Of a stretch of 64,000 bases of DNA, positions 2,864 through 30,100 are shown piece after piece. Each line of letters begins with the position of its first letter. The first letter of the stretch is position 1. This stretch comes from Octopus sinensis (lineage: Eukaryota). A model generated the notes under the pieces. That model made no database searches and was not told the DNA's origin. It saw only the letters and a program-made list of their open reading frames with translations. Made by a program: the position numbers and the translations under genes. The stretch covers positions 1 through 64,000 of the forward strand of contig NW_021832528.1 in the NCBI RefSeq assembly GCF_006345805.1, in the 5' to 3' direction.

Positions 2864-4548
2864 ATGATACGTGTCATGCACATTTGGTGGATTATCTACT
2901 CGGTGTATGCCCTGGAAATCCTAAACGTGGAGAGTCACGTGCGGATGAGGGGGGGACTGGTGGAGGTGACAAGCACAATGGAAACAGACTCGGGAAGTGA
3001 GGGACTGTTGCACTGCATATCGCCGAAGTATGTGAGGAATGTGTCGTCGGCAATGGTATAGTGTTGTGAGAGGTCAGTTAGTGGAAGAAGGACTGAGCCC
3101 TCTGAGGGAGTGGAATGGGTGTTATGAAGTGCCAGTGCGGAATGGGAGAGTGAGGATATTGACAACATTGATGGGAGTGGGATGTGCGCGGGAGGAGGGT
3201 GTGGTCGTGACATGTAGTGTGGTGACTGAGTGGCAGTGAATGGGGTGGTCTACTCTCCCTACCCAATCAGACGACAGTCGACTGTCATTCACGGCACATT
3301 CCTCGACTATGAGAGAGGAGTGTTGGAGGGGAATACTCTGAGGGTGGACACACTGGACGTGCCCCCCTACTCCCAAGTACTCCCTCCCCTCATTGCAGGA
3401 TGACCTGTCCGTCTACTTGCTGGCCGACGACCCCCAGCTGAGCATCACACAGTACAAGCGGAGGATTGCCATATCGCAGTGGGGGACAGTGCAGGTGAGT
3501 GAAGTGGTCGAGTTGGTCGAGTCATTGGGGAGACAGGTGTCTTCGGTGGTGACGCGTGTGCCCCTGGGGAGTTCCCGGGTGTATTTCCGTGACCAAGTGG
3601 GGAATATCTCGACGAGTGCAGTGGACGGGCAGTTGGTCACTCTCACATTCCGATTCCCCCTCCGCAGTGGGTGGAACACACAATTCGAGTTTGGGTATCA
3701 ACTCCCCGCCCATTTGTGTGTGCACGTCCGTGGTTGGCCTGGTCTGTCAGTCTAGATGGACAATATGTGTTTGAACACTCCCTCATGTCCACCTTCTTCC
3801 AACACCAGTCCGTCCACAACATGCAATTGGAAATTGTGTTGCCACCTCACTCCACGGGTGTCCTCATCCACACTCTCCCTGTCCAGGCAGGCAACTATTC
3901 CGCACATCTCGATGTCCTCTCCCCTCGACCCACACTCCTTCTCACTGCCACCAATCTCAACCCTCTCCACGCACAACACATTCGCGTACTCCACATGCTC
4001 ACTCCTAGGTCGCATACACTCACTCCACTCACATGCTACTACTCAAGCCTCTCCTCCTCTCCCTCTTTGTCCTACTCCTCTTTGCTCTCCTCATCATTCT
4101 CACACGTCTCCACTTGCCCATCCTCCCTCCACACACTTCACACTCCCCCACCAATCAACTCCTCACCCTCATCCAACGAATCCTCGACATCTCACACTGC
4201 CAACCAACCATCGACGCATTCAAACGCTCTAAGGACCACTCCTCTTTTCAACACTTTCGCACACACTTCGATCGGGACATTCTCCACTTGACCAATCAGG
4301 TCATCGCCATCGAACAACACATCACCACTGGCATCGACCCTGTCCTCGACCATCTCCTCGCCAGTTCCAACAGAATGCGCGAATTGCTCGCCAAACTGAA
4401 TGTTCTCCTTCACAAAACGATGGTCAATGCGGGCAAGTTGGTGAGTGATGTCATGTCTCCCTCCGACTACTCTGCTTTCGAGATTGACAATATTGCCCAG
4501 CGCACTGATCTGGTCACTGCCATCGAGAACATATTGCACGATTTGTGA
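2864..4548 (+). CDS. RPN1: Ribophorin I (oligosaccharyltransferase subunit 1), about 6 exons
   Basis: Signal peptide; YSPYP, RRIAISQWG, YFRDQVGNISTS and RFPLRSGWNTQFEFGY motifs; TM helix LLKPLLLSLFVLLLFALLIIL; frames joined by 22-23 nt GT-AG introns. Confidence 0.9.
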
Positions 4549-5033: not shown

Positions 5034-5082
5034 CCACACACAAGAAATAAGTAATACTAATTTTTTATTCAATTTAAATTAT

Positions 5083-5786
5083 CTAATTAAGAATCCTGAT
5101 CTTCAGTGATTTCTCTTCTTCGCATGGAAGAAGAGACTCTGGACATGCCCACTCCGCAAGATGATTTGCGGAAGAAGCGTACTCTTCGTTGTCTACTTTC
5201 ACTCCATTTGTGTGTTCAATGAGCATACTCTCCAGCATCCTCTTCAGCACAACCGACTGTCCTCGTTCCTTCATTAATGGATATCATATACTTTTAAAGA
5301 ACTATGAGACAAATCCATCCCATGTCAAGACAATTGGAATTAGCTCTTGTGACATTAAGTTTCTGTAGAACTGCCTTCGGTTAAGTTCAAAACACATATT
5401 GTCAGGTGACAATTCTAAATAACTCCCCTTTTTTGACCTTCCGGTATCCATATTGCTCGAATTGTCTCTCAATTCGTCGCTGAATGATTTACTCGTTTTG
5501 TCATTATTAGTTAGTGGTATGACCAACTCGAGTTCCTTCCCAAGTTTGTCAAGCTTCGCGTTCATCATTCCGATCCACTCACTTCTTTTACTGGGTCAAT
5601 GCTCGCTGGCCGAGATGTCAGTCGGTTGATCTGCTTTCATAAATTCCCCAATCGAGGCATCTATCCCTGTCAACATGTCTTTATTAAGAAACTGATAGGG
5701 AACTTTCCTGGTCGGCCTCCGTAAAGGCCTCTGCTTGGGGGAAGGGTTGTGAGATAAGGCAGTGGGCAGTCCTTGGGCCACTTCAT
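5083..5786 (-). CDS. Probable multi-exon gene of unknown function
   Basis: Three consecutive same-strand ORF segments filling the space between NDUFA8 and KDELR; no family recognised and splice model unresolved. Confidence 0.35.
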
Positions 5787-5857
5787 CTATGGAGAGAAGA
5801 TAATAGTTTTAGAAAAGTAAAGAATAAAAGTAATAATAAATAGTGTTGACGTGTAGA

Positions 5858-6514
5858 ATGAATGTGTTCCGTTTGTTGGGCGACATGTCTCATTTGTGTG
5901 CGATGGTGGCACTGTTGTGGAAGATGTACAAGACCAAGTCGTGTCTGGGTATGTGTGTGGTGGGACGAGTAGGCGTGTCGAGGAAGACCCAAGTGCTGTA
6001 CGTGTGTGTGTTCGTGTGTCGCTACGGGAGCATGTGGTGGGTGTATGTGTCCTTGTACAACTCGGTGATGAAGGTGACGTATATCCTCACCAGTCTGGCC
6101 ACGGTGTGGGTGATGGTGTTCAAGTACGGCAGCACATTCGACAAGAGAAACGACACTTTTCCCTACGCATACTTGTTGGTCGGCTGTGCTGTCCTCGCCC
6201 TCCTCGTCACTCGGCAAGTCCGCCTGGCCTTGTGGACATTCTCCCTCATGCTCGAGTCCGTGGCCATGCTCCCCCAACTGTTCATGATCACCAAGTCGGG
6301 GGAGGCACACACCATCACCTCCCACTACATCTTCTTTATGGGCATATACAGACTATTCTACATTTTCAACTGGGTCTATCGATACTACACTCAACACTTT
6401 TTCGACATCACCAGTGTCGCCACCGGCATACTCCAAACCATCCTCTACCTTGACTTTTTCTACCTCTACGTCTACACTGTCCTCAAGGCCAGGAGTATGT
6501 TCATTCCACTCTGA
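5858..6514 (+). CDS. KDELR: ER lumen protein retaining (KDEL) receptor
   Basis: MNVFRLLGDMSHL, LWTFSLMLESVAMLPQL, TITSHYIFFMGIYRLFYIFNW, QTILYLDFFYLY; in-frame 24-nt intron at 5949-5972. Confidence 0.95.
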   Translation: MNVFRLLGDMSHLCAMVALLWKMYKTKSCLGMCVVGRVGVSRKTQVLYVCVFVCRYGSMWWVYVSLYNSVMKVTYILTSLATVWVMVFKYGSTFDKRNDTFPYAYLLVGCAVLALLVTRQVRLALWTFSLMLESVAMLPQLFMITKSGEAHTITSHYIFFMGIYRLFYIFNWVYRYYTQHFFDITSVATGILQTILYLDFFYLYVYTVLKARSMFIPL

Positions 6515-7220: not shown

Positions 7221-7833
7221 ATGTGGTTGTGGGACTATGTGAAGGACATGTTGAAACAGCTGGGTAGTGTGATAGTTAGAAGTGTAAGGACTGATGAACA
7301 AGTCGGGGGTGATACTACTACTGGGAATAGATGACGCAGGGAAGACGACTCTGTTGCAGTATCTGAAGACAGGGGCAATGCACACACACAACCCGACTCT
7401 GCATGCCAGTGAGGAGTGTGTGGTGAGGTAGATTGTGAGGAGTTGACGATGGGGGGTGTGAATATGCAGGCGTATGACCTGGGAGGACACGAGCAGGCTC
7501 GGCGAGTGTGGAAGGACTATCTGGTGACAGCGGATGCGATCGTGTTCATAGTGGATGCGGCAGAGAGGAGTCGAGTGGAGGAGGGGAGGGAGTGTCTGCA
7601 GGTTGGCCCGTCCCCCATTGCAGTCCGTGCTCACCTCCACCAACATTCCCGTGGCAGTGCTGGCTAACAAGGTGGACAAACCAAATGCAATGGGGCCTGA
7701 CGAGTTCGTGCACACCTTCGGACTGTACGGACACATGAAGGCACTCCGCCCTTTGCAAGTGTTCATGTGCTCGATAAAGAAGAGACACGGCTACCAGGAA
7801 GCATTCGCGTGGTTGGCCAACTACATTAAATGA
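7221..7833 (+). CDS. SAR1: Small GTPase Sar1 (COPII)
   Basis: GIDDAGKTT, DLGGHEQARRVWKDY, NKVD, LQVFMCSIKKRHGYQEAFAWLANYI; three introns of 22-25 nt. Confidence 0.95.
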
Positions 7834-7839
7834 TGTTAT

Positions 7840-8869
7840 TTAATAAAGCATTAGTCGTTCCAGCACGTCCGTGTTCAGTCGCAGGTACTGCAGACGGTAG
7901 GCAGCCGGGAGGCCTGTTGTCTTGCCGCATTGGTGACACGTTATGTCCCAGAACGTCGACTTGAGTTGTCCCAGCACACACCTCTCGCACATGTTGTGCA
8001 GACAAAACAGGCGCAGAGGCCGTCTGTTCACGTTGTCGAACCTGCCTGTCACACACACACCATACACACACGCACTGCCGCAACACGACAAGTACTCCGC
8101 CGACTCCAATTCACACTCCGGAATGTCCCCCCAGTTCGGCATGCTCCACGCTGATGGAAAGTAGTAGGGGATTACACTCGCACTCTCGATACTACTCAAC
8201 ACTGATTGTCTGCTCACTCTGCCCTCACCACTCACACTTACATGCTCACTCCGCTCTTCCTCCCTGTCGAGAACCCACTCCTCATTGTCGATCCACTCAC
8301 TGACCCTTCATTGGAAACCACTCCACTCCTCATTGATCCATCATTGGAAGGGCACGACTCCTTGTTGACCCTTCATTGGAACCCACTCCACTCCTCATTG
8401 ACTCCTGACTCGAGACCACTCCACTCCTCATTGACCCTCCATGGGAAATTGTAGAGGCAACACTCCTCACTGATCCGTGATTGGAGGAAGCACCACTCCG
8501 CACTGACCTTCCCTGGGAAATTGTAGAGGCAGCACTCCCCACTGATCCCCCAGAGGAGACTACACTCACTGACCCGTCATTGGAGGGGACGCCACTCCGC
8601 ACTGACCTCCCATGGGAAATTGTAGAGGCAGTACTCCTAACTCCACTTGTGAGGGATGCCCGACTGGACACACTCTGCACTCCACTGTGGACACTCCCCC
8701 TCACTCTTCTGATGATTGGAGGGGGATGAATATATTCGGTTGCTTTATAAGAGTATAGACTGTGTTTGCCCCACTCGGAGGAAGTGTCCCCATTAAGACC
8801 GTCCATTGATTGTGCGACCGGGTGGGTGGGCTTGCACACATCATTCGACTGGCTGGCCGATCTGCGCAT
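7840..8869 (-). CDS. Ser/Gly-repeat protein with C-terminal RING-HC finger
   Basis: RPLRLFCLHNMCERC...ITCHQC RING pattern; internal tandem repeats at about 8270-8640; intron GTAAGT...GCAG near 8220-8241. Confidence 0.65.
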
Positions 8870-11650: not shown

Positions 11651-11826
11651 CTCCCTTTCTTGACGGGGTTCTGGTGAGGGATTGTTGAGGAGACTAAACC
11701 ATCAAATTAGTCGAATAGCAGTGATCCCGTTGAGTTGAGAGATTAATTTTGTACCAACTCAGTTGACAAGTGTGGCTAACTTATAGTACATGGGGAAGAG
11801 GGATATAGGAAAGAAGTGTTAGTAAA

Positions 11827-12686
11827 TTATTGTTGAGGGGGAGGGCGTGGCTGCCTGAATGCGTTTTGTATTTGTTCGACAGCGGCAGGATTGGTTTCCT
11901 TCAACTGTTGAGCGAACTGTTGTCCCCTGTGAATGAAAGAGAGAGAGGACATTTGCATGAGTGCGGAGAGGTCGGGGGAGTCATTTCCCTGGAGGAGATT
12001 GCCGACCATGGACTGCATGTTGGGGTCACTCATAAGCTGGGAGGCCTACACATGAGAGAGGGGGAGACTATGCTCATTATGTCGGGAGTGTCCCCCATCT
12101 CCCTCTTGGCCAACTGGAGGTTGTCCTTGTAGGAAGTCTTGGTGTCGTCCAACTGCACGGCCATTTCGAAGGCCTGGACAGCGCGGGGGAAGCGATTGGT
12201 GGCCAAGCAGGCGGATCTGTGGTGAGAGGGGGAGAATACCCGACTCGACCGTACGCCTGAGCATAGTTGGGACTCAGTTGGACTGCCCTCTCCCCGTCGG
12301 ACAGTGCCTCCTCGTACCGTCCCAGATTATAGTAGGCCGCTGATCGGTTGCTGTAGTACGTGCTGAGTGGATTGGCCTCAATAGCCTTGGTGTAGCACTC
12401 CAATGCCTCACTCGCCCGTCCTCCCCGGATGCACTCATTCCCCCGCTCCTTCCACTCCTCCCCCTCCTTCTTCCTCTCCTCACTCACTTGCATTGTCCAA
12501 TACAACTCCTCCAGGTTGTACTTGCTGTACTCCTCCTTTCCTATCTCGAATGCTGACTCCAAACACTCCACAGCCACTGCAATCACACACACTCTTACCT
12601 TGCAGGCTCCCCGATTTGTCCTCCGATAGTGTCAATGCCTTTCCCTTCACGAATTCGATTATCGCCTTCACTAGTTCACGTTCCAT
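11827..12686 (-). CDS. SGTA: Small glutamine-rich TPR co-chaperone (SGTA/Sgt2)
   Basis: N-terminal dimerisation motif LVKAIIEFV...SLQVAVECLESAF; three TPRs (KERGNE...YYSNRSAAY...YAQAYGRVG); C-terminal MSDPNMQSM/GQQFAQQL. Confidence 0.9.
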
Positions 12687-12729
12687 TCACCACACCACCA
12701 ATATTATTTTATTTATTCATTTTAACACT

Positions 12730-12920
12730 GTTGTTCCATAATCCGGATAATCTTTTCAGCACATTCGTTTTCTGTTCATTTTTCCGAATCGTAATCTTTC
12801 CGTGTGGAGAGAAACAGGGATGCATGTCCAGAGTCACTCCTATGACCGTCTGCCTTCTGTTGAATGGTGTGTCCAGCTTCAAAGAGACTTTCTTTCAGAT
12901 CCCTTCTGGATGTCCCGATC
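12730..12920 (-). mobile_element. Non-LTR RT C-terminal relic
   Basis: Minus-strand IGVTLDMHPCFSPH...NVLKRLSGLW. Confidence 0.5.
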
Positions 12921-13352
12921 CCTTGAGCCTTTAATTCAGTATTTTATGTCTGATACGAATCATTAAGTCATCAAGGCGAGTCGTTAAGTAGACCTCCCTT
13001 GACCACTAGCAGCATGAGGTTGTCGTTATTGCTCTTGTTTCGAGAATTGTCTTCGGGAAGTCGTTCAGATCACAATTCTTTAGTATTGATTTCCTGGAAC
13101 CGTGGCCAGTTCCCCGAATGGTAGTTGTATTCCAGAGGGACTTTTCTGTTGCTGAATTCTCTTTTGACCTTCCCCACAATCGGATTGTTTGAATTGCAGA
13201 ATTATTCGAATAGGATTGGAGCGGGAGTGAGCCTGCTTGACGACGAAGGGAAAGGGGGAATGGAGGGGGATGTGAAAAGTGTGAATTGTGTTAAAATGGA
13301 AGGAGAAAGTGTAGTAGTGAAGAAATGAAAAAGGAATAAAGGAAAGCCACAA

Positions 13353-14300
13353 ATGTGGAACTCAGAACAGGTCGAGAAGATGCGAGTGGGAATGTGTGTG
13401 GGAGTGTGTGTGGTGGAGCAGAGCAAAGACCAGGAGGGGTCAAGACGAATGCAGGAGAAAGTGGAGTGCGTGGAGGAGAGGGAGGGGATATTGAGGGAGC
13501 TGTTGGGGAGTGCGTACAGTGTAATGACGGATGTGTTCGGGAACTACGTAATGCAAAAGATGTTTGAGTGTGGGAGTAAAGAGCAGCGGGAGAGACTGGG
13601 GGAGGAAATGAAGGGACGAGTGTTGTCGCTGTCTCTGGACATGTACGGGTGTCGGGTGGTGCAGAAGGCGATCGAGAGTGGGTGGAGGGGGACGATCGAG
13701 GAGGAGTTGAGGGGACACGTGATAAGGTGTGTGCGTGACCAGAACGGGAACCACGTAATCCAAAAGTGCATAGAGTGTCTGCCCGACGCACAGTTCATCA
13801 CACAGTCCTTGAAGGGGCAAGTGTACTCTCTGGCCACACACCCGTACGGATGTCGGGTAATCCAGCGGATACTCGAACACTCGCCCCTCATCCTCGACGA
13901 ACTCGCCCAACACGCCCTCACTCTCATCCACGACCAGTACGGCAACTACGTCATCCAACACCTCATCATCCAACACCCTTCCCACATTCACACACTCCTC
14001 CCCCTCATCCAGGGACGACTCCTCCACCTGTCCATACACAAGTTCGCCAGCAATGTCATCGAAAAGTGCATCATCCACGCCTCCCCACACATCCGCGCAC
14101 GACTCATCCACGAAATACTCACTCACGGATTCTCTTCACTCCTCAAAGACCAGTACGGCAACTACGTCGTCCAGATTATGCTACAACTCGCACACCCCAC
14201 ACACCGACACATCATGCTCGACACCATCAAGGCACAACAACACGTCCTCAAACACTATACTTATGCCAAACACGTCCTCGCTCGCCTCCGCATTAGTTAG
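13353..14300 (+). CDS. PUM: Pumilio-family (PUF) RNA-binding protein, PUM-HD only, intronless ORF
   Basis: Eight PUF repeats with recognition motifs SRRMQ, NYVMQ, CRVVQ, NHVIQ, CRVIQ, NYVIQ, SNVIE, NYVVQ; ends YAKHVLARL. Confidence 0.93.
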   Translation: MWNSEQVEKMRVGMCVGVCVVEQSKDQEGSRRMQEKVECVEEREGILRELLGSAYSVMTDVFGNYVMQKMFECGSKEQRERLGEEMKGRVLSLSLDMYGCRVVQKAIESGWRGTIEEELRGHVIRCVRDQNGNHVIQKCIECLPDAQFITQSLKGQVYSLATHPYGCRVIQRILEHSPLILDELAQHALTLIHDQYGNYVIQHLIIQHPSHIHTLLPLIQGRLLHLSIHKFASNVIEKCIIHASPHIRARLIHEILTHGFSSLLKDQYGNYVVQIMLQLAHPTHRHIMLDTIKAQQHVLKHYTYAKHVLARLRIS

Positions 14301-15227
14301 TACATTCTAATCCTCCTTTATCCACACTTTTTCGGCATTCTTGCTTATTACTTGTGCATACCATTAAATTCTTTCACTATTCGGCACTCCTTTTATTGCC
14401 TCGTCCTCCCTCTTTGTTTGTAAAGACTGCTTAAAATACAATAACTGCAGACAACACATGTCCATTAATGTGGCAGGAACAGGGCTTCATAGACAAGATT
14501 TTGCGCTATAAATTGATATTGGTGGAGACTTTGAACTCATTTGAGACAGAATATGCTCTTTCTAATTACAGGAAGGTGAGTTGACTTGTTGTATTCCCAA
14601 GTCATGTGATAATGGGAGAAGACCCGTGCTGCTTTCGGTGGCTCGAGGAAAGGTCTCTGAGAGGATCGACTTTGGTTTTTTGCTTGTTTTTTTATTTTGT
14701 AGAGAACTACTACGGACGGGCTGTAGTCATGTATGGAGTGCCCTACGTGTACACACAAAGTAGGATTTTAGCGGTGAGTTGTTGGGGGATTTTAAAGGCA
14801 GGCACAACTTGAGTTTCTTAGGAGAATTTTTGTATTTCTGAATCTGAGTTTTTGATGTTTGATGCAATGCGACATACAGCACAGTGTGTGAGGAGAGTAC
14901 TAAGAGGGATTATGGAATAATTATTTTTGACGATTTTGTTTTTTGGTATTTTTTAAAGTTTTAGAGATTTGCGCGGGGAGATAAAAAGTCAAAATTGCCG
15001 AATTGGATTCTTGAGAATTTGCCAGATTCGTTGAGTGATTTGTCGATAGACGAGGCGATTCAAAACGCTAAACATTTTTTAACATTATACTAGTCCTCAC
15101 TTTTCGGCATTCTTGCTTATAATACTCAGACAATTACTTAATGCAATAATTTGCATACCATTAGAAAATAACCGGTTCTTGCTTATTACTTGTGCATACC
15201 ATTAAATTCATTAGAAAATATTAATTA

Positions 15228-16635
15228 CTACTCCGGACGAATGAAGGAGGAGGGGACGTGTCCCTGTGCGTCGTCTGAACGGGCAACATATGACCAGCCA
15301 CTGGAATCTTCGTAGAGTATCTCCACCCGGTCGCCCTGACTGACGGAGAGAGTGCCGGGCTCGTCCACTGAGAATGAGAGTGGGGAGGACTGGAAAAGTC
15401 TTGTAGGATGGTGCCGAAGTGTGTTTGCACGTCTTGACTCCACTCGGAGTCGTGTGTGCAGTAGAAGGAGGAGCTGAGAGCGAGGAGTTGGTCGTGTGCC
15501 TAGAGTAGGGAGAGGGAGTACGGGTTGGTCGAGTTTGAGGAGTTGTTGCATGCCGGCGGAGAATTGTTGAGTGATTTGAGTGAGCCTGGTCTGGACAGTG
15601 CGGACGTCTCCCATGTGTGGGTTGTTGGAGTAGAGGTCGAGCATAGAGCGCATGCCAATGCTAGGGTGAGTGTGAGATGGTACATGGACTTGACGTGTGC
15701 GTGGAGGGTGTTGACGAGGGAGGTGATCTTGGACTGTGACTTTTTGGAGGGCTTAGGTTGGTCGAGTGGGCCCAAGTCTTGGAAGAGGAGTGGTTGGGGG
15801 AGGGGGGACTGTGGGTAGTGGGTGGAGAGGAGGGCAGTGAGTGTGGATTGGGAGAGGGAGGTGTGCTCGACTAAGGACAGTAGACTGGAGAAGGACTGTC
15901 GGAGAGAGTCTTGGAGTGAGGAGAAGAAGGTGAATTGAGCAGTCAGTCGTTGGTCCAAAAGGACTTGCAAGTCTTGTAGGATTTGGTGGATGGTTTGAGT
16001 GATGGTCACGTGACACAACTGGTTGTAAGTGGAGATGGCTGTCCGACACTCCGCCTTGGCCTTGTCACACGTCTGTGCCCTCTCCCTGTACACTGCCCTC
16101 GACTTTTCCATGTCGTTGACCGTGTTGGACTTGTCGGATTCCGTGTCCTTCATCACGGCGAATGCCTTCCTTCCCGCGTTGAATGCGTTGGAGTATCTTT
16201 CGACGGCCTACACTGCCATGCCACCACTACCGCCTTGGCCGCACTCTCCCCCCTGCTCATTTCCGTCGTCGCACTCTCGTATCTCTTCACTACTCGCTTG
16301 TGGCTCTCCTTCTCCCCCCCCGTCACCTTCCCCTCACACACACGCTCCAGCTCCTCCCCCAACTTACTCAACAACTCCAACACCCCCACAAAACTCTCGC
16401 ACAACACATTCACCCCCTCATGCTTCCCTCCCCCGTACTTTTCACTCATTTTCCTACATCTACACACACACTCACTTTAGTCGCCCTCCGAACGAACGAA
16501 ACTCGCCCGACAGTTCCTTGCTCAGCTTCCCCATCTGCGACACTGACCAACACGTCTTGTCGTCCCACCACGCCAGACGATTGAAACTCTCCTTCACGTC
16601 ACCATACACACTACCCACAACGAGTAGTCCCACAT
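15228..16635 (-). CDS. F-BAR/HR1/SH3 protein of the CIP4/FBP17/TOCA family
   Basis: N-terminal MWDYSLW, helical F-BAR region, HR1 motif MLDLYSNNPHMGD, C-terminal SH3 (LSVSQGDRVEILYEDSSGW...GHVPSSFI). Confidence 0.8.
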
Positions 16636-16899
16636 AATCCAATTATGCTAATCACTTTTATTCTACACAATGTGACAGCACTTGTGATATGACCACACTT
16701 TGTTATTTTGTTAATTGTTAACTCTGATTGCTCATTCTAAACTTGTTCTTTGAGGTAGTTGCTGCCACTATGCAACGTCGCCGAAAGACTGTGGATCATC
16801 AAGATGTGGGAGAATGTTGATTACCCTCGTCGTCCCAATGAGGCGGCAAGCTGCATTCACATCTGCCCACTATATAACAGTCTAGGAAGTTAAAGACCC

Positions 16900-17950
16900 A
16901 CTCCGTTCAGTCGACTGTCTCTAATGAGGTGGTCGAATGGACATCAAAGTTCATAAAGTTAAATTAAGCCATATTCAGCCGATTCCGGCCATTGGCGATT
17001 CTGTAAGACAAGTCCCTTTACGAAACTCTATCCCCCACCAGCACTGCTATTTCCGTAAGTTCACTACTTCAGATGTCCAGTTTAAGTTTCGGTCTACCCC
17101 TCTTCCTTTTTCCAGCGAACGAAGACAGCAGGATTTCTTTTCCTATAACATTCTCCCGAAGCACGTGCCCCAAATATGATAATTGTTGGCTTCCAAACTC
17201 GCCACAAGCGACAGTGTAGGTTTAATCTTTTCGAGAAAAACGACATTTGACACTTTGTCGTACCAATTTATGTTCAAAAGTTTATTCAGCACCATAATTC
17301 CTGTGAGTCCCTCTTTTGCTGTAAGCTTTGGACAGTGTCCAAGATTCACAACCATAGAGAAAAACGGGAAACACATCGCGTTGACTAGTCTTATCTTTGT
17401 CCTGAGAGAACATCCTTGCTACTCCAGATCCGATTCAGTTTATCATCGTACTCTTGCCATAGCCATCCGTTATTAATTTCTGAGACACCACCACCATCAT
17501 CTTGTTATTAGACTTCCAAGAAACATAAACTTCAACACATTCTATTTCTTCGTCGTCGACGATGACACTAATTTTTCCAGACAGTGAAGTTGTCATTATT
17601 TTGGTTTTTTTCACATTTAGGAATAGGCCAAAAAAGGCATGTTGTCTTTGACGCTCGGTATTAATTGCCTCAAAGCCATCTTCTGTTTCAGACAGCAAAG
17701 TAGTATGTCTGCATAAAGGAGATTATTTATGTTGAGGCTACCAATCTTGATTCCGATATCATTTTCGCAATTAACTCCTCCATGACTTTCTCTGTGTAAA
17801 TATTAAACAGTAGCGGGGATAGAATACAGCCTTGTCGGACGCCCCTCCCAATACCGAAACAGTCTGTGTCTCCATAAACCAAACATTGCAATAAACCAAA
17901 GTTAATAAACCAAACATTTTTGTCTGACAACCTACTTCCCGACAATCCCT
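16900..17950 (-). mobile_element. RTE-like non-LTR retrotransposon relic
   Basis: GVRQGCILSPLLFNIYTE and GLFLNVKKTKIM motifs; frameshifted. Confidence 0.75.
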
Positions 17951-18197
17951 CAATGTAAATAGAGAAATTGCATACGATCTCTTGGAGAGCGAATATAAGT
18001 TAATTCTCACATGTGATGAGTACAAGCACTACCAAACCTCCCTAAAGAATGCGTCCGACAACTCAGCGACATGACAAGGGTGAGGAAATGAATGAGCCAC
18101 ATATAGCAAGAGGAGGCGGAAGAAGAGAAGGAAGTAATATTATTTAATTGAAATTAATCAAGTAATGGAATAAAATTGTAATAGAATAGAGCACGCA

Positions 18198-18924
18198 ATG
18201 TCTGGTGACGTGGTGGCGACATTCAAGTTGGTGATACTGGGTGACGGGGGGACGGGGAAGACGACATTTGTGGGGCGGCACAAGTCAGGGGAGTTCGAGA
18301 AGAGGTACATCGGTAAGGAGTGTGTGTGATGGCAGCGACGGTGGGGGTGGAAATAACGACTCTGGTGTTTCACACGAACAGAGGGGCAATACAGTTCAAC
18401 GTGTGGGACACGGCGGGGCAGGAGAAGTTCGGAGGACTGCGGGAAGGCTACTATTTGCAAAGTGGAGTGGTCAGTGTATTGCAGGCAACGCGGCAGTGAT
18501 AATGTTCGACCTGACCTCCCGCATAAGCTACAAGAACGTGGAAAATTGGCACCGTGATTTGACGAGGGTTTGTCCGGGCATTCCCGTCGTGTTGTGCGGG
18601 AATAAGGCCGACGTGAAGGACCGGAAAGTGAAGCCGCGGATGATGAACTTTCACCGCAAAAACAACGCGGCAGTAAGTGTTGTCCCTCACTCAGTGCTTC
18701 ATCATCTCCGCCAAGAGCAACTACCAAATCGAGAAGCCCTTCCTCCTCATCATGCAACAGTTGAGTGGCGACAAACATCTCCAACTCGTCAAAGCCCCTC
18801 CTCTCCTCCCCCCACTCCTCTCCCTCGATGTCGACGCCGTACAACGCTATGAACTGGAAATGCAGGTTCTCCTTCCTCACCACCCAAGAACGCACAACAC
18901 ACTGACCTCCCGGACGACGACTAA
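18198..18924 (+). CDS. RAN: GTP-binding nuclear protein Ran
   Basis: [54 protein letters not shown], acidic tail DLPDDD; four introns of 22-23 nt. Confidence 0.95.
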
Positions 18925-19200
18925 TTCACTCTTTTTTCCTGTTCTTTTGTTACTCTCCTCTATGTAGCATATCCTGCGACTGCACTCTTTAGACTGAATG
19001 TGCACTATCTTATATCCAAGGTGATAAGAGTGCGGGACGTGCAGTGGGGCCAATTGGAGAGTATAGTATTCTCCCCTACCGCCCGTGAATAGCGTATAGA
19101 GCAGTGGGACACTCTCAATGGACAATAGCGTGAATTGCGCGATGAGCATTGATTAATAAATATGCGCATTCTCATTATTTCGTGGTCTATTTAAAAGTGA

Positions 19201-22200
19201 ATGTTGGGAGACCTGTTGAAAGGGGAGGAGTTTTACGTGTGGGATGAAGGAGAAAAGTGTGGGAGGACGGTGAGTACAGTGCGACTGCACTCTTCGCGAA
19301 TGTTTTTGACAGTAAAGACGAATTTGGTAGACGTGGTGAGTGATTGTGAGGAGGTAAAAGTGATCGACTGTTGTCGGGTGCGTGACGTGAGGAGGAAAGA
19401 GTGGGGACTGCAAATGTGGCTGGGATGCGACGTGGTGAATTTGAGTGGGGTGAACATGGCTTGCAATTCGGAGGAGAGGATAAAAGTAGAGGGATGTGTA
19501 ACGTGGAGAAATGGTGGGGGTGTTTGTGTGGAGTGGTGTTCGACCCGGTGTTGAACAATTTGTGTCCACAGGACATAATAGTGAAGCAGTGGGTGTGGTT
19601 GTGTGAGGAGTAGGTTTATGATGCTCGAGTCGATAAGGACGGCGGAGGGAGTGGTGGACGTGCGCAAGTAAAGTAGTGTTAGGGAGAGTAGAATTATTCG
19701 GTTTTTCCACGGGAAAATGAGCGAAAAGAGCATTCGCCAAGTACTGAGCCAAGAGGAGGTGTTGAAGGTGGTGAGTGAGTGGTGAATGCAGGGGAACGAA
19801 CTGTGTGGGGAATTCGACGGTGAGCTGTGGAGGGAACTGATGGACAAGTTTGTGGACAGGCCGGACATTGAGGAAATATTCAGGAAATAGTTGGAATGAT
19901 TGGCAGATGTGCAGTTCGAATGGGAGGGAGTGGATTGATTTGGAGTCGCTGGTGGAGTTCATAAACGAGGTTGATGTGAGTGTTAAAGTGGCAGACACAG
20001 CGGGACAGTCGACTGAATACAATCCTGTTTCCCCTCAAAACACGGGAGGAGTGTCTGGAAGTGATCGAGCGATTCGAGAGTGACCCCGAGAACAGAAGAA
20101 AGGGTGAGTGAGTGTGGAGGAGTGTAGAACGGCTGGGTGTGCGTGGGTTCGGGGAGTACCTGTCGTCGAACACGGCGATATCGGCAGGGAACCAGGTGGG
20201 GAAATGTGAGATGAGTGAGCCACTGTGCCACTACTTCATAAACTCGTCGCACAACACATATTTGGTGGGGAGACAGTTCGGGGGCAAGTCCTCTGCGGAG
20301 ATATACCGAAGCATTCTGATTGCGGGGTGTCGATGCGTGGAGTTGGACTGTTGGGACGGGGACGACGAGCCGATAATCACTCACGGACTGGCTGCCTGCA
20401 CAGAAGTGTTGTTTAGAGTAGTGTGTGGGTGGACATGTTAGGACGTGGTGAAGGAGATAAGTGAGTCTGCCTTCATCACATCGGACATGCCCGTCATTCT
20501 CTCCTTCGAGAACCACTGCAGGTGGTCTATTGGGATATTCCAGTTACAAACAACAAAAGAAGATGGTCGACTACTGCATTTCCATATTTGGTGATCTGTT
20601 GCTCAAGGACTCCCTCGAGGACTACCCGTTGGAGGAGGGAGTGCCTTTGCCCTCTCCCGCCTCACTCCGACGCAAAATAATAATCAAAAACAAAAAGACA
20701 CAAAAGATAGTGGAGGACATGGACACAGAAGGTTGTCTTGTGTAGTCCACGAATAGTCAAGTATATTAGTGAAGCACAGGACGTGGCAGAAGTGATCAAG
20801 GCCTACAAACGACAACATGCCACCACCACTGTCCACCCCGAACTGTCCTCCCTCATCAATTACGTCCACTCCGTCAAGTTCGCGGGGTTCCAGGCCGCGG
20901 CGGGTGAGTACCATTCACACACTCATTAGAAAGAAACTACCATTTCCACATTTCCTCATTTGCGGAGAACGCGGGCTACGGACTGATCAAGAACAGTGCC
21001 CAGGACTTTGTACGACACAACAAGAAACAACTCACCAGAATATACCCAAAGGGGGCCCGCTTCGACTCATCCAACTACCTCCCCCAGGCAAGTCCGCCTC
21101 ACTATTTCAGTTGTTTTGGAACGCGGGCTGCCAACTGGTCGCACTCAACTGGCAGACCGCAGGCCCCTGGATGCAGTTGAATCAGGGCAGGTTCGAGTAC
21201 CACGGAAACACGGGCTACATCCTCAAACCCTTGTGCATGCGCTCGCCTGACCAAACCTTGAATCCCTTCACCGAGGCCACCATTGACGGCATCATCGCCG
21301 CCCAGTGCTCCGTCACCGTTCACTGTCCCCAATACCCTTCCCAGGTCATTTCCGGCCAGTTCCTCCACGACAGGAAAATAAGCACTTTTGTGGAGGTGGA
21401 AATGTACGGCCTCCCCACCGACACGATCCGGAAGGAGTTCAGGACCAAGGTCGTCCACTCGAATGGAATGAACCCATTCTACCGAGAGGACCCTTTCGTC
21501 TTTCGCAAAGTCAGTCCTCCTTTCACCCCAGGTCGTGTTGCCCGAGTTGGCCATCCTCAAAATCGCCGTCTACGACTGGAACACCAGCAAACTGATCGGG
21601 CAGAGGCACCTCCCCTTCGAACTGATCGAAAACGGTTAGACGGAGGAATGACCCGTAGGCTACAGGTATGTGGTGCTGAGGAGTGAGGCCAACACTCCTC
21701 TCAACCTGCCGACCCTGCTCTGCCACTTTGAACTGGGCACGTACATCCCCCACGCACACGGCGGTTGGTCTGCTCACTCACACCAGACATCGCCGACGTC
21801 CTCTCCGACCCCACTCGCTTCCTCTCCGACGCCGAAAAGGCCAGGAAGATGCTCAACTACATGGGAGTCGAGGACAACGACATCGAGGAGGACTACTATC
21901 AAGACCTCCACTTGCCCACCATCGACCAACTCAAACACGACACCGAATACATCTCTCTCCACAAACGCTCCCTCGCTGAGTTGGCCGCCATGAAGCAGTC
22001 CTTCATCAAACGCAGAATGTCCATCAGCAAGGACCAATGTCACACCTTTGTCAAAAAGATCTCCAAAGTCAAACACACTTCCCAAGAGGTCCCTCCTCTC
22101 ACCCATTTCTAGCAAATCGCCAAGATTAACGACTTACAAAACTACAAGTGGAGAGCCCTGGTGGCCCAGCAGGAGAACCAGTTCCTCCACAAAAAACAGG

Positions 22201-22660
22201 AGATGTGCACTGCACTCTTCAACAAACTCTCCAAACTCGCCCGCAAGTCACACCAACTATTCCGCAAACAACTCGACTGCAAACTCAAATGGTTTCACTC
22301 ATTTCTCATCCAGTATGCTCGACCAAGTCACTGAGAGACACGCCAAGTCCGTCCTCCACATGGACAACCTCAAACACCTCCCAAGCCTGAAAAAATACGG
22401 TTCCTCCTCTTCCTTATCTCAGACGACGTAAGGAAATGCAGGACGAACGACTCAAACGATTCATCCAAGACCGCCGACATGTCGAAAAGGAACGAGACCA
22501 CCTCGAAAAGTACTGGAATGCCGCCATGGCCTCACAGATCGACCAAATACAGAATGACTATGATCACGTACTCCACTCCTCACACACTCAGGAATGCCTC
22601 ACTCTCCGCCTCAAGAAGAATACACTCGACCTGGAAGACTGCGACCACGCATACGTCTGA
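19201..22660 (+). CDS. PLCB: Phospholipase C beta (PH-EF-X/Y-C2-coiled-coil), many micro-introns
   Basis: [45 protein letters not shown]...[24 protein letters not shown]2 [20 protein letters not shown]; one apparent homopolymer frameshift near 22390. Confidence 0.92.
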
Positions 22661-22759
22661 CTTTTTGTATTTCCATAACACTCAGTCCTCTTTACTTTGT
22701 CCATTAGTTAGTCATAGTAAACTCCCCAATAAAATTCTTGCCTGGCAACGAGGGAATGG

Positions 22760-23819
22760 AGTGTAGTGGGGTGCCCTACAACCAGGGGAGAAGACAACTG
22801 CTGATTCACTCCACATTGCAGACTGACGAGCGAATACACTTGAAATGTACACACTCCGTTATTCTGCAGATTTGAAAAGCGAACAACAAATATTGCAGCA
22901 TCTCCCGGAATTGGCGGAGGACCTCTCGTGCATTGGCCGTGAGCTTCTCAAATTGGCCGGCCCAGGACGGTGACACATCCAGTCCTCAAATCAGCAGCAA
23001 GTCAGCGCGGACTGTGCATTGCGTGAGGACATTGGAGGGACATCATTTGGAGTATCCCCAAGCAGTGGCCGTGTCTGCCACAACAGGGCACATCGCAGTC
23101 CTCGACCGATTCACTGGACGCATGTCGGTCTTGAACGGCTGTGGCATATTTCTTTATTCTGTGGGAGTCATGGAGGAGAAGGAAGGGGTGGGTGCTGTCT
23201 CCCTCACATTTCTCCACGACCAGTCTCTCCTCCTCAGCAAGAGCTGTGAGAGTGGGAACATGACTGTAATCAGCTTGATTAGTCGCAGATATACCGGGAC
23301 GGGGTAATGACTGACCAGTGGGACTACCAGCCACCTCCCCTCTGCGTTTGTGCGAGTGGAGTCAACGTGTGTGTCCTCGACCAGTCCCCCACCATTCGAA
23401 TATGCCCAGGAACTCCGCGGAATCCCCCAATTCTGTCAGTATCCATCCAGGCAGACTTGACTGAGGGACTGTTCAATCAGTTCAGTGTGTGTCTCCACTC
23501 GGACGTCGTCTATATTTGCAGCAAAACGGAGAACAAGATTAGGACAGTCGGACTGGCGGATGGTCTGGTTGGGTTCATCCGCCTCCCTGACGGGGACCTG
23601 CCCCTTCGTCCGTCGGCCATTTGTGTTGATAAGGACGGGAATGTGTTATTGGCCGACTCGTTTAATGACAGAATTTGGTGTTGTGGAGAGAATGGTTCGT
23701 TGATATTGGACAAGCGGGACGGAATTAGGGGAGTGACTGCACTGGCAATGTCCCCCCAACACCATTTAATACTCCTGGAGACGAATACCCACTCATCCCT
23801 GACAATACTCTCACTCTAG
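22760..23819 (+). CDS. NHL-repeat beta-propeller protein
   Basis: YPQAVAVSATTGHIAVLD and RPSAICVDKDGNVLLADSFNDRI; 5' end uncertain. Confidence 0.6.
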
Positions 23820-25126: not shown

Positions 25127-26150
25127 TCAGTCACGAGTAGGGGGATAGGGAGAGTAGTAGCGGAGGGGAGGGTAGGCCGTGCCGCCAATGTTGAGGGAGG
25201 CAATGTCCAGGTCGTCGTGAGGACAAAACATTTGTTGGTAGTACATCCTGGCCTGGGAAGGACTTTGGAAGAGGACAGAGGGGCGCTTCCTGTCGCGGGG
25301 GACGGCGGTGGAAATGTGGACAGAGCAGTGTTTGATGACCAATTCCCTGCCAACGAGACTGGCGGCGACTTGTGGGTCGGAGAAAGTGACGAAAACAAAA
25401 GTCCTTGGGGGGAGGGGGACGAAGACGTCGATGACTTGTCCGAACTGTGAAAAGAACTCTTCAATGTCGGCCTTGTCCAAAGTGTGGTCGACTCGGCCGA
25501 CGAAAATCCTCCTGCGCAGTTCGTGGTCGTGGGGAGTGAGTGCCCGCAGCCTGGAATTGGGGATTCTGACTTTGCAGTGCCTTCCGTCGAGTTGGTGACA
25601 GGCGGCCAGACAGGCGAGCTGGTCCTCCCACTCAGTGAAGCGGACAAAGCCATATCCCTTGGGTCGGTTGGTGTTCATGTCCTTCTTTATCTACTCCTCC
25701 CCCACAACACACAACCTCCACCATGGCCACTCGCCCGAAAGTCTCAAAGTACTCTCTCAGTTGCTGGGAAGTGTAATGCCACGGCAGTCCCAGGATTATC
25801 AAGTCACTGCACTCCCGATACTCCGCCCGTCTCTTGGACTCCTTCGCGTACACTGTGTGGTACGTCAGCTCCCCCCACCCTTCCCTCGGGGCAATCAGCA
25901 GGTCCTCCACTCGCCGCACTACTCGGAACGGGTCGCTCGTCTTTCTCCTATATTTCAGTCCAGACGCGTAGCCGAATTGCGTGTTCAGAGTCCCCACCGA
26001 CAAGTTTCCACACTTTTCCAATGGCAGTTCAATCACCTCCGAACAGTCGTCCTCACACACCTTCACAAACTCCGACAAGTTTCCACACTTTTCCAATGGC
26101 AGTTCAATCACCTCCGAACAGTCATCCTCACACACTCTCACAAACTCCAT
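25127..26150 (-). CDS. TARDBP: TDP-43 orthologue (NTD plus two RRMs)
   Basis: NTD EFVRVCEDD..VIELPLE...QFGYASGLKYR; RRM1 SDLIILGLPW...KGYGFVRF; RRM2 IFVGR...RTFVFVTF; one 25-nt intron. Confidence 0.92.
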
Positions 26151-26235: not shown

Positions 26236-27420
26236 TCAGGTGATTCCGACACTTCTCAACAGTCGAGCCATCTTTTTACGATGTTCCGACCGTGACCCCA
26301 CACACTTTCTGTATGTACGGTGAATGGTTTGTGGTCCATTTCCACGATCCCCCCCATTTGCCTCTACGAGAGACTCCAGTGTTCTATGGACAATTTCCCT
26401 ATCGGTATGGTCCTTCAGTAGGTTGATAGATCTTTCTTGAATTTTTTCGATTTTTAGCTGATTCGTTGCCGCCAGGTTACAGCCCCAAGCAGCACATGCA
26501 TAGCCTATTGTTGGCTCGATATACTGCTTGTAAAGGGTCTCTACCGCTGGCGGATAAGTTCTCCCACAGTTCCAAAGGAAGGCTTTTACAAAATTGATCT
26601 TCTTTATACAGGTTGATTCTACGTGAGGTGAAAAACAGAGGAAAGTATCAAACGTTACTCCCAATATCTTCTGTGTTTTCTTTTGTGGTATTGGGACTCC
26701 ATTCAGCGTGACATCAATAGTTTTCGTCCCCATCTTCCTATTTTTCGTGAATAGAGTGACTGCTGACTTTTCGGAACATGCATGTAGTCTGTTTTCATAT
26801 AGCCATCCATATAAGTCGTCCAGTATTCTTTGTAGTCTTTCCTTCGCGTATTCGACATTTACATCCCTAGATGCGACAACTATGTCATCGGCATAGGAGA
26901 GTAGTATGTCATTATTATCCATAGGAACCGGGTGATCATTCAGAAATAAGTTGAAGAGGTCGGGGATAAAGGAGAACCCTGGGGTACCCCATTGGGCAAT
27001 AAGCGTGATCTTGAACTCTCGTTCCCGACGCACACTTTCCCACGACGTCCGCTCAAAAAATTCGCTATCCATAGCTTCATAGGTGTAGAAATATTTGTAC
27101 CAAATATCTTTTCAATTAGGATCTTCCTTGGGACGGAGTCAAACGCTTTTTCAATGTCGATAGTGCATACAATTGATTTCTCCTGCAATTTCTTTTTTTT
27201 GTGTCCTTCATTTATGAAATCTGTTAGTGTGGTAAGGAAGGAGGTCGTTGACAATCCTTCCTTGAATCCATGTTGGAATGTAGATTGTGGGAGGAAAGGG
27301 CGAATATGTTTTAGGACCAGTTTTTCCAAGATTCTTGACAACACACATATAATGGATACTGGTCTATAGGAGCCGGGGTCGTTCTTCGGTCTTCCAGGTT
27401 TTAATATTGGCCGGATTCGG
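26236..27420 (-). mobile_element. Non-LTR retrotransposon RT, frameshifted and 5'-truncated
   Basis: QHGF, DIEKAFDSV, GVPQG, YADD and ILGVTFD motifs across two overlapping ORFs. Confidence 0.9.
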
Positions 27421-27970
27421 TATAGAGTTTGTGATTAATGACGTGTTATAGATCGTGGTTGAAGCATACGCTCTTTATATTCCACTCTTCAACGAGATAT
27501 TTAGTAAAGATATCTCGGTGCCAACTCGGGAATGATGCATCAATCGGGCCATAGCTTACGCGATCGTGCGTGAGGGAGACAATGCACGAGATCTATTTGT
27601 ACTCGGCAAGACAACCTATGATGAAATCACTCAGAGGCCTGCCCCAAAGAGTGGGAGAACATTGCCGCAAGAAAGGCCGACATTTGTGAGCAATAGGGCA
27701 AGACTCCCCCCTTAGTGCGTACTTTACTTTGTCGGGAACGAACTGCCAAATGGGAACTCAACGAGTTGAAGCGTGTCCTGGCAGAGAGGGAGGAGCTGAT
27801 TCACGTTTATCAGAAGAAACTCTCAACTCATGTCAGCGCAGGCGAGAGAACAATTTGAGTTTAATCGCAGGTTGTCCAGCCTGATTGTAGACAAGGCGTG
27901 TGATCAGACAGATGGTTTCTTGGCCACGTAAATTCGCAGGTTAGTCAGGAGTATTTATTGAAACAACAAG

Positions 27971-29336
27971 TCAAATGACTGATCGAATGAGAGCAAGCAG
28001 TTCACTGTCAGGAGACAGCATGTCGGCAATCCTAGTCAACTCTGCCTGCAATTGAAGACACTTGTCCCTCCTGGAATCGGCAGTGAGGTCGACCCCGATG
28101 GGACTGAGAGGAGCGAGGTTGTCTCGAATGAGTGGGCCGAAGTGTGTGAGGACGAGGGTGACAGTGTGGTGGAGTGTGTGGTCGGGGGAGGAGAGGAGTG
28201 GGAGGACAGTGAGAGCCAAGTCGAGAGTCCAGAAGTGAGAGGGGAGGACTCCAAGGAAGTGTGTGAGTGCAGTGTAGTCGTGTGCAAGAGTGAGAATGGC
28301 CCCCTTGTGTGAGTGAGTGAATTACCGGAATATTGCGAGTGCGGCACATGTGTGAGGCCAGTTGGAGGTGTGCGAGTGTGGTGGTGAGAATGGGGAGGAT
28401 GGTGTTGTGCCAGGTGGTGAGTGTGTGGCCTTGGAAGGCGGCGACGAGGACTCGGTGTTGGTCACAAAAGAGGTCAGCAACATTGTGGATGGGGAGTGAG
28501 GAGTGGTGTGTGTAGGGTTCCCAGGACACCAATTTGAGTGAGTGGTTGGTGGCACAGTACATGGAAGTGTGGTGGCCTGTGAATCGAATAGCCCTATGAG
28601 TGAGGAGAGGGGAGTACTTGACAGGGAGTGCGTCGAGTGGACTGCGATCGACGACTTGCATCAGGTCCAAGTCGAGCAAGGCCATAGCCCGATCAGCGCC
28701 GGCGGAAGAGAGGAGGAGCATGGAGGGGTGGAATTGGAGAGCAGTGACTGCGTCGTTGTGCGTCCTCAAGTCGTGGAGGACCCTCCCGGCGGCGACATCC
28801 CAGAGTGTGATGTGCCCGTTCTGACACCCGGCGGCCACCCACCGTCCGTCGGGGGAGAACTGTACGTGAAGTGGGGGGGACTGTGAGTGGTAGGTGGAGT
28901 GGCACTTGCTCTCCCGACTGTCCCACAACTCAGTCAACAACACCCTCACACCTTAATTCGCGAGTCGACTCCTCCTGACACGAGGAATGTGTCCCCCGGG
29001 TGCCAGTCCACACTCAGCACACCACTCGAATGACCCATTAACTTGCACACCACTTAATTTGACTGGTTGGGTGATACATCTCCCTGTCCTCACGTCCCAT
29101 TCCTTTATCACACCCGACTGCGACCCTCCCACTGCCATGTTGTTCTCGTTGTTAAATGTCACTGCTGTCACTGACTCGCACATTCCCTCCAGCCTCATCA
29201 CACTCTCCTTCTCCCCCACTTTCCACAACTCGACTTGTCCTTCCTCCCCTCCCGTTATTACCATTTCCCCCCATTTCTTCCCTATCGACATGCACCGGAT
29301 TGTTGTACACGACCTTAATGCACCACCTGAATACAT
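27971..29336 (-). CDS. KATNB1: Katanin p80 WD40 subunit B1
   Basis: WD40 repeats TGGEEGQVELW, GSQSGVIKEWDV, QFSPDGRWVA, QFHPSMLLLSSAGADR; con80 tail FGPLIRDNLAPLSPIGVDLTADSRRDKC. Confidence 0.88.
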
Positions 29337-29347
29337 TAACAATTTAT

Positions 29348-30017
29348 TCAGAAAATGACACAGTTCTTCTGGTTTTTAGTCTTTGATTGTTGTTGCGTGT
29401 TCCAAGTGTCGATAATCCTCGAAAAGATTGCCCGCACGTTGATCTACGACTGGCAGAGGGCAATTACGTCTTGCTTGGCCGAGGTCTCCTCGTAAATCAT
29501 GTTGTGCTTTCTGGCCAGGGACTTGCCGCGTTCTTCCGAGATGGGGGTCTCTTTGTGGGAGGCGAGTCGTTGGATTATTTTCAGGTCGTCGCGGAGGTCG
29601 ATTTGAGTCCCCACGAGGATTCTGATTTTGGCGTCGCTGTGTTTGTCGAGTTCGGGGATCCACTAAAGTAGGCCAGTGGTCTCACCTGACTCACAATGTT
29701 ATCGAAACTGTCGGGGCGGACCACCGAGAAGCACACAATGAACACGTCCGTCTGCGAGTAGGACAGCACTCGCAGTGTGACCAAGTCCGGCTGTCCCGCC
29801 GTGTCAAAGATGGCCAGTTTGTAATTCACGCCCTTTACGTTCATGTCCAGCACGCTGTTGTCAAAAACCTACGATTGCCCATTACTCAAAGCACTGTCGG
29901 GACGTAGAAATCAGAGAATGTTTGGTGGACTGCCCGTCCGATGAAGGAGGTCTTGCCCACTGCCCCGTCCCCCACCACCACGCACTTTAAGCACTTGTCG
30001 TTGTTCATGCCTATCAT
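29348..30017 (-). CDS. Rho-family GTPase, Cdc42-like
   Basis: KCVVVGDGAVGKTS, YVPTVFDN, FDTAGQ, LSYSQTDVFIVCFSVV, GTQIDLRD, CAAX box CVIF; three micro-introns; start at 30017 or 30008. Confidence 0.9.
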
Positions 30018-30100
30018 CAACGAGCTTGCCTAGATTAATATCCAATTCCATCAGCGCATTAATCGCTTCCGCTTCCTTGTTGCTTACGCAGTATAGAGGA

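Follow-up and report, generated by a model that had tools for sequence, protein, structure and literature searches.

In mitochondria and bacteria, the replication strand on which a gene lies biases its amino acids, with the G-rich strand favouring glycine and valine and the C-rich strand favouring threonine, proline and histidine, and this bias is known to mislead phylogenetic trees. In human DNA, a bidirectional substitution asymmetry around CpG islands has been ascribed to replication origins (PMC2817419). Human meiotic breaks leave single-stranded DNA to the left of the break on the forward strand and carry asymmetric C>N and A>N changes within 2 kb; C>G, read as the mark of REV1, peaks 700-800 bp from the centre (PMC7615360). 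Here we describe a 64-kb stretch of DNA (the window; all coordinates refer to it) in which most of the well-conserved genes carry a mirrored skew, G-rich in the 5′ part and C-rich in the 3′ part. In a single judgement that covers three points together, we hold with high confidence that the unit of skew is a DNA domain of 0.6-3.5 kb, in whose left part one strand is driven to G and in whose right part the other strand is; that this mirrored pressure fixes silent and amino-acid changes alike; and that purifying selection retains only the most constrained residues. The skew is real and strong, the window is a single one, and the mechanisms discussed below are candidates only.

Fifteen genes were modelled, with introns corrected by hand (those at 19327 in the PLC-beta gene and 29077 in KATNB1 are uncertain), and at neutral sites the flip is strong in ten of them, with p between 4e-44 and 1e-6. 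Counting G against C at these sites, 5′ then 3′, we find 86:40 then 17:94 in RPN1 (2876-4548, + strand, five introns), 35:14 then 6:36 in the KDEL receptor gene (5858-6514, +, one intron), 41:1 then 23:20 in SAR1 (7221-7833, +, three introns), which forms one domain with a convergent RING-finger-like gene, and 31:8 then 5:63 in an SGTA-like TPR gene (11827-12686, −, four introns). The counts are 71:18 then 5:109 in a TOCA/CIP4-like gene (15228-16635, −, six introns), 51:7 then 15:43 in RAN (18198-18924, +, four introns), 186:39 then 49:193 in a PLC-beta4-like gene (19201-22660, +, 19 introns modelled to 22386, where the model was cut), 54:10 then 6:53 in TDP-43 (25127-26150, −, one intron) and 48:37 then 7:88 in KATNB1 (27971-29336, −, four introns). 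TOCA, KATNB1 and RAN had all been expected from an earlier reading of the sequence to share one drift, and in each the flip is seen at DNA level. A RAC/CDC42-like GTPase gene (29348-30008, −; 34:16 then 16:30, p 0.002) and a DRC1-like ciliary gene (31912-34071, +, start not fixed; 83:59 then 39:60, p 0.004) flip weakly with the same sign; the flip of NDUFA8 is not significant, and four further genes examined by segments look flat, with few sites. Further genes lie at 43660-44600 and 5080-5790.

The genes are packed very tightly, with 11 nt from the RAC stop to the KATNB1 start (29336-29348), 6 nt between the convergent SAR1 and RING gene stops (7833-7840) and about 90 nt from ARHGAP39 to RAC (30008-30101), a layout that makes operon-like transcription possible. 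The TDP-43 N-terminus holds an in-frame 75-nt tandem duplication (25997-26146, 96%), and a Ser/Gly/Val-rich stretch of the RING gene (8296-8642) is built from degenerate tandem repeats of 33-99 nt; near 8350 its frame changes. A 169-nt tandem satellite of at least five copies fills 1-976. Remnants of LINE-type reverse transcriptase, together with a BED-finger hAT-like transposase (26236-27434, 55875-57233 and 58660-59412), sit in AT-rich surroundings that show little skew.

Pooled counts and fits refer to the ten strongly flipping genes, which were picked after the gene-by-gene skew result was seen and which all come from this one 64-kb window. Four-fold sites are 63% G and 8% C before the switch and 9% G and 62% C after it, and introns of 22-25 nt are skewed just as strongly (G 43%, C 6% before; G 7%, C 45% after). 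Genes on the two strands are alike in skew: because a G-then-C order is unchanged by reverse complementation, the + strand has G before C whatever the gene direction, as it does in six + and four − genes. Four-fold G+C stays at 71-73% in every zone, so C and G have been exchanged, not lost. Two-fold sites are asymmetric as well, with a G share of A/G sites of 74% versus 46%, and A and T are mirrored only partly, A falling from 22% to 15% and T rising from 7% to 14% across the switch. In sigmoid fits to 1677 sites, a width relative to gene length (AIC 1367) did better than an absolute width (1410), and a common relative midpoint of 0.44 (1458) did better than a fixed distance from the start (1790) or from the end (2023); the switch point and its width scale with gene length. 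The skew holds a plateau of about 0.7-0.9 out to the gene ends and, in pooled flanks, is gone 150 nt upstream of the start and about 50 nt past the stop, and across the 277-nt gap between RAN and PLC-beta G:C jumps from 2:38 to 33:1. The sign changes sharply at the source and smoothly at the midpoint, with exceptions at the ARHGAP39/RAC and SAR1/RING boundaries. No boundary motif was shared among the 20 largest repeat families listed. PLC-beta has a probable GC-AG intron, and 2 of 21 G-zone introns end in a GAG acceptor; these cases (21088-21110, 19486-19508 and 28929-28951) suggest that the skew reaches splice sites.

This shape bears on a reading that we consider fairly unlikely, in which double-strand breaks fall in mid-gene, resection exposes the + strand leftward and the − strand rightward, error-prone refilling gives C>G and A>G changes, and biased conversion raises G+C. 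Its polarity and scale match those of human hotspots (PMC7615360), and the gain of G to the left and of C to the right of the centre on the forward strand is what we see. A fixed resection length does not, however, yield a width that scales with gene length; pooled flanks lose the skew within 50-150 nt, and the sign flips across the short RAN/PLC-beta gap. The skew does not keep a fixed reach of 1-2 kb regardless of gene ends, although single flanks (SGTA, RAC) do extend.

A quite unlikely reading, of our own construction, is a bias of fixation rather than of mutation, in which breaks fall in the flanking gaps and heteroduplex repair fixes G:G and misses C:C mismatches, so that on the + strand C/G polymorphisms are resolved as G rightward of the break and as C leftward of it. 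C:C mismatches are poorly repaired. Such a bias predicts the observed polarity with its source at the gaps, as well as the high G+C of the genes, whose four-fold sites reach 71% where the repeat-rich part of the window has about 30%. It would easily override weak selection, as in gerbil Pdx1 (PMC6573468), and a separate C-C mismatch pathway is mentioned for fission yeast in PMC4154643. By itself, however, the bias does not make two-fold A/G and C/T sites asymmetric.

That the pattern is an artefact of assembly, sequencing or gene modelling is extremely improbable. Contigs of four runs cover the same genes with few differences (1, 1, 12 and 48 other letters in Pumilio), their gap sums of 70, 68, 68 and 240 nt fit the modelled introns of SGTA, TOCA, RAN and PLC-beta, and the proteins align full length; for 11800-23000 the run contigs refute this reading. 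In its favour are at least one probable indel error, near 22390 in PLC-beta, and a peptide, considered below, that may be intron. The frame break in PLC-beta falls at an A run (22386-22400), where the contig gap total is 70 nt against 69 nt of intron, which suggests a one-base assembly error and no pseudogene. C and G replace each other at 42 of 158 places of difference in run X5, 111 of 566 in X9, 20 of 173 in X1, the closest run, and 3 of 32 in X3; these counts are unpolarised, and repeats and contigs from other organisms are among them. Pumilio and RAN homologues richer in AT are also present in X3 and X5, with matches confined to short cores (13737, 18396-18635); they possibly come from a related species with weaker skew, which could serve as an outgroup.

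Genes are not the strict unit of the pattern, and 2 of the 15 modelled genes run against a gene-wise rule. An ARHGAP39-like MyTH4-RhoGAP gene (30101-31706, −; RhoGAP E 3e-6, MyTH4 E 0.08) is reversed: its neutral sites count 45:44 over the 5′ half and 81:19 over the 3′ half, and this G-rich end lies just upstream of RAC. The RING-finger-like gene, assigned by its Cys/His pattern with no Pfam match, has its last exon at 7840-8217 (−), and this 3′ end, 6 nt from the convergent SAR1 stop, is G-rich on the sense strand (31:9). No reset is found at the ARHGAP39/RAC boundary or at the SAR1/RING junction. Mid-gene breaks would account for both cases: the G-rich DNA that lies upstream of RAC would extend into ARHGAP39, and the C zone of SAR1 into the RING gene. 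PRMT5 (44627-46742, +) goes through two G-to-C cycles: its segments read 1:19 before an AT-rich intron (about 94 nt, 45628-45721), 12:4 beyond it and 4:15 further on (reset p 2e-5; segments P1, P8, P13 and P14, out of frame, were left out), and its C-rich stretch, rich in Leu, Pro, His and Thr, lies in the N-terminal TIM barrel, where the homologous human stretch was identified. ARHGAP39, the RING gene and PRMT5 thereby break the rule of the original prediction, by which each protein differs between its N-terminal and C-terminal halves. G-rich DNA also continues 2.3 kb past the SGTA 3′ end, which a decayed retroelement may explain.

The effect on proteins is clearest in Pumilio, whose homologous repeats provide a built-in control for a compositional push within one protein. 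The 948-nt frame at 13353-14300 (+; start codon and first 29 codons uncertain) matches the Pfam PUF family (E 2e-58), and its predicted model (pLDDT 93.3; TM 0.88-0.90 against human PUM1, PUM2 and fly Pum) has the eight PUF repeats and curved alpha-solenoid of the PUM-HD. Provided that no upstream exon was missed, the protein is the RNA-binding domain alone, with shortened loops and at most 315 residues. The base-recognition triplets of repeats 1-8 are SRQ, NYQ, CRQ, NHQ, CRQ, NYQ, SNE and NYQ, and all 24 residues stand in invariant columns of a 45-row alignment of the window protein with 44 homologues, taken from 120 matches listed; they are as canonical as had been proposed. Around them the DNA changes character. 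Four-fold G:C is 33:2 in repeats 1-4 and 7:40 in repeats 5-8, and from one repeat to the next it runs 8:0, 8:0, 12:0, 5:2 through the G zone (13422-13760, +, repeats 1-3 and into 4), 6:7 in repeat 5, and 0:11, 1:10, 0:12 in the C zone (13890-14300, +, repeats 6-8). The switch, which has no strand, lies at 13750-13890 in repeats 4-5 (estimates 13749-13781, about 13840, and 13886).

The encoded residues follow. The mean index of G-minus-C codons falls from +0.70 to −0.53 across the Pumilio repeats, while homologues stay between −0.12 and +0.23. Histidine is absent from the first 105 residues and occurs 14 times in the last 105 (glutamate 15 versus 2), and the C zone holds 18 histidines, where homologues have a median of 7 and a maximum of 10. 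Arg, Glu and Gly are gained early and His, Leu and Ile late, with no enrichment in Pumilio of Val (13 seen, 15 expected) or Pro (4, 4). At residue 301, Lys in 42 of 44 homologues, runs X1, X5 and X9 have Asn and the window has His, one step caught in progress as far as these sequences tell; Arg 285, the residue of the homologues, is Leu in the same three runs, a difference in the opposite direction.

All four Pumilio peptides quoted in the original prediction lie inside the frame, but the first, GMCVGVCVVE (13389-13418), is probably in part intron. It overlaps a candidate in-frame 24-nt intron of the form GT..CAG (13398-13421, +; a 21-nt or 33-nt variant fits too), a stretch that scores like the G/T-rich 5′ introns of the same genome: its intron log-odds are 2.4, true 5′ introns average 3.0, and contig-covered Pumilio coding 24-mers average −3.0, with 5% reaching 2.4. 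The KDEL receptor gene has an in-frame 24-nt intron whose read-through yields a similar peptide. Intron-skipping contigs span Pumilio at 13438-14281 without an intron gap; GMCVGVCVVE lies outside all listed spliced contigs, whose cover begins at 13438 and 13442. A contig of X5 appears to start at the candidate acceptor (13421/13422), which we do not count as evidence because contigs cannot reveal RNA starts. At 13444/13445 a contig of X5 carries an intron-like G/T-rich insert of about 24 nt that is missing from X1, X3 and the window; an intron may recently have been lost or gained here with precision. Parts of the 3′ flank of Pumilio recur on the same strand beside the TOCA 3′ end (14325-14372 and 15100-15210), and an X1 contig joins 15177 to 14363.

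We compared Pumilio (286 of 315 residues aligned, the first 29 left out), PLC-beta (900 of 910) and RPN1 (378 of 519) with their homologues. The PLC-beta set comprised 28 full-length homologues from 120 matches listed, and the RPN1 set 86 homologues of 430-630 aa among 150 matches listed in a HMMER search. The codon index falls along the window proteins (rho −0.39 in Pumilio, p 1e-11; −0.22 in PLC-beta; −0.28 in RPN1) and shows no trend with position in the homologue columns (rho 0.02 for 44 Pumilio, 0.04 for 28 PLC-beta and 0.04 for 86 RPN1 sequences). The original prediction had named a shared N-to-C gradient in outgroup orthologues as the finding that would speak against it, and homologues of these three proteins have none. 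Measured against leave-one-out controls, the before-minus-after shift reaches z 9.9 in Pumilio, 10.2 in PLC-beta and 7.4 in RPN1, exceeding every control and, for RPN1, bearing out the claim that it shares the drift. Changes from consensus towards G and towards C number 16:4 before and 8:20 after the switch in Pumilio, 71:46 and 44:69 in PLC-beta, and 21:13 and 3:11 in RPN1.

Pooled, residues seen against expected before the switch are G 61/39, E 73/51, V 81/60, R 63/37 and C 27/18, and after it H 54/20, L 105/80, I 58/44 and T 45/34, with no gain of proline (36/38). The residues gained overall are G, E, R, V, C and W early and H, L, I and T late, histidine being the best marker. The proposed contrast of V, G, E and C with H, L, P and T accordingly holds for G, E, V, C, H, L and T, and fails for proline and, in Pumilio, for valine, both of which are flat. 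In the 13-residue RAN motif that had been quoted as drift, one proline and four leucines are new, and the other three of its four prolines are ancestral, common to yeast and human Ran. The tallies are unaffected by these prolines or by a possible intron in the first Pumilio peptide.

The shift in index is damped by conservation, from +0.33/−0.32 in columns less than 50% conserved to +0.21/−0.22 at 50-90% and +0.08/−0.06 above 90%. PLC-beta and RPN1 show no direction among changes in columns more than 90% conserved; in Pumilio, 20 of 120 such columns have changed, 9:0 towards G versus C early and 1:7 late. The suggestion that changes are fixed at tolerant sites understates what happened in Pumilio. 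That nucleotide pressure, and not protein function, drives the gradient is upheld: the skew is strongest at four-fold sites and in introns, absent from homologues and weaker with conservation.

The same facts weigh on selection at the level of RNA or protein, by which G-rich 5′ and C-rich 3′ halves would pair and close up the mRNA, or would adjust splicing, translation or the ends of the protein, and which we judge very improbable. The skew is bounded by gene ends, as this reading would have it, and Pumilio has 200 predicted cross-half pairs versus 133 after global synonymous shuffling. Yet introns carry the same skew, homologues lack the gradient, and a per-transcript rule is broken by ARHGAP39, the RING gene and PRMT5; in five of six genes, moreover, there is no gain in folding energy over local or global synonymous shuffles (14 each), with z −0.8 for Pumilio and −2.5 for the KDEL receptor.

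The skew had also been expected to distort phylogenies. PLC-beta was the one protein for which trees were built (23 rows), and comparing whole-protein with by-zone trees gave no supported shift in placement; the query sits among long branches (Nematostella, Toxocara) with weak support, on a branch of 1.16 for the whole protein, 1.58 for the 5′ zone and 0.90 for the 3′ zone. Distortion, not borne out here, is still plausible. In composition tests PLC-beta passes as a whole (p 0.18) and fails by halves (p 0.002 and 0.025), Pumilio gives p 0.018 as a whole and 5e-8 and 7e-4 by halves, and RPN1 fails both ways. The two halves partly cancel, so a whole-protein test can pass while the halves fail, and this is the main risk for trees.

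The source animal is likely a dicyemid parasite. The 69 modelled introns are 21-29 nt long (median 24; the longer PRMT5 intron is outside the set), run contigs skip 23 nt at modelled intron places, and the genes use the standard code and are of animal type (TDP-43 with its N domain, PLC-beta4, DRC1-like, katanin). Introns mostly shorter than 30 nt in animal genes are what a dicyemid would show. A DRC1-like, probably ciliary gene (Pfam E 3e-5, below the cut-off) and KATNB1 would lean towards a dicyemid over a myxozoan, since myxozoans are not known to have cilia. Across 51 animal genomes, PMC13644364 reports such tiny introns only in myxobolids and Dicyema japonicum. No named dicyemid was among the matches listed. 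If the organism is a dicyemid, per-gene heterogeneity filters like that of PMC6543705 would partly miss the skew.

By a modest margin over even odds, we favour a two-directional process that would start in AT-rich gaps beside, and sometimes inside, genes, run inward from both sides and meet near the middle. Such an inward process fits the sharp jumps seen at gaps, the plateau, and a switch that is smooth and scales with length. Its carriers could be two replication forks or sense and antisense polymerases, which our data do not separate; two observations tilt against plain transcript ends, namely that RAC starts without a reset and that PRMT5 has one internally. Because both transitions and C/G transversions are asymmetric, we infer by analogy with human breaks that the G-rich strand was exposed as single-stranded DNA, either as lagging template or as non-template strand. 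On it, deamination and REV1-type bypass of abasic sites would have turned C into G or T, and A into G, in the course of very many generations of fast evolution. Spacing replication origins 1-3 kb apart would far exceed any density known to us. A bolder version, which we regard as unlikely, treats every gene or closely packed set of genes as a mini-replicon that is inherited, spans 1-3 kb and is copied from its two flanks, either in its chromosomal place or after excision or amplification. If true, single genes would carry bacterial-style two-replichore skew, and the extreme divergence of dicyemid proteins, which makes the group difficult to place, would be partly one directional mutational process, its sign readable from position. 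DNA is rearranged, amplified and circularised during dicyemid somatic development, according to earlier work cited in PMC6543705, but somatic events leave the germ line unshaped unless those cells found new individuals.

What matters beyond the mechanism is a mutational or conversion force strong enough to push a single protein in two opposite compositional directions, and it yields base-level predictions of the sites of origins, antisense starts or breaks in an animal about whose DNA handling little is known. A search of mostly open-access main texts brought up no report of a mirrored skew on the scale of a gene, in dicyemids or in any other animal's nuclear genome; the word 'skew' is absent from PMC6736024, and 'strand' from PMC6543705. 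The pattern is known in kind, as origin-type asymmetry and as skew-driven protein bias, and it is its scale and strength that we did not find described.

Mitochondrial and bacterial genes lie whole on one replichore, whereas the genes described here are nuclear and have a bias that changes sign within each protein. Runaway GC of the gerbil Pdx1 type is alike in that a nucleotide-level force alters deeply conserved residues while residues that contact DNA or RNA stay; its 'GC skew', however, is G+C content, raised strand-symmetrically over large regions (PMC6573468), and here G stands against C at constant G+C and reverses in-gene, with no strand-symmetric rise of both bases (63:8 then 9:62). 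R-loop-linked human skew shares the positive sense-strand skew after the promoter, but its 3′ skew is positive and lies past the termination site (PMC3787257), whereas the 3′ half here is strongly negative, within coding sequence (about −0.75 in the 3′ zones), so that positive skew at both gene ends is not found. Human meiotic breaks are alike in mirrored polarity, in C>G and A>G changes and in a 1-2 kb reach; they show an excess of rare variants at PRDM9 sites with a fixed reach (PMC7615360), where the window shows saturated composition that scales with the gene. Closest are the human CpG islands, which share the sharp jump at the source, the constant level, the smooth midpoint switch and the A>G and C>G asymmetry; in PMC2817419 their asymmetry is about 9% and extends across hundreds of kb of non-coding DNA, and in the window the G/C ratio is 7-fold within about 1 kb, the putative sources lie in AT-rich gaps, and coding sequence has been rewritten.
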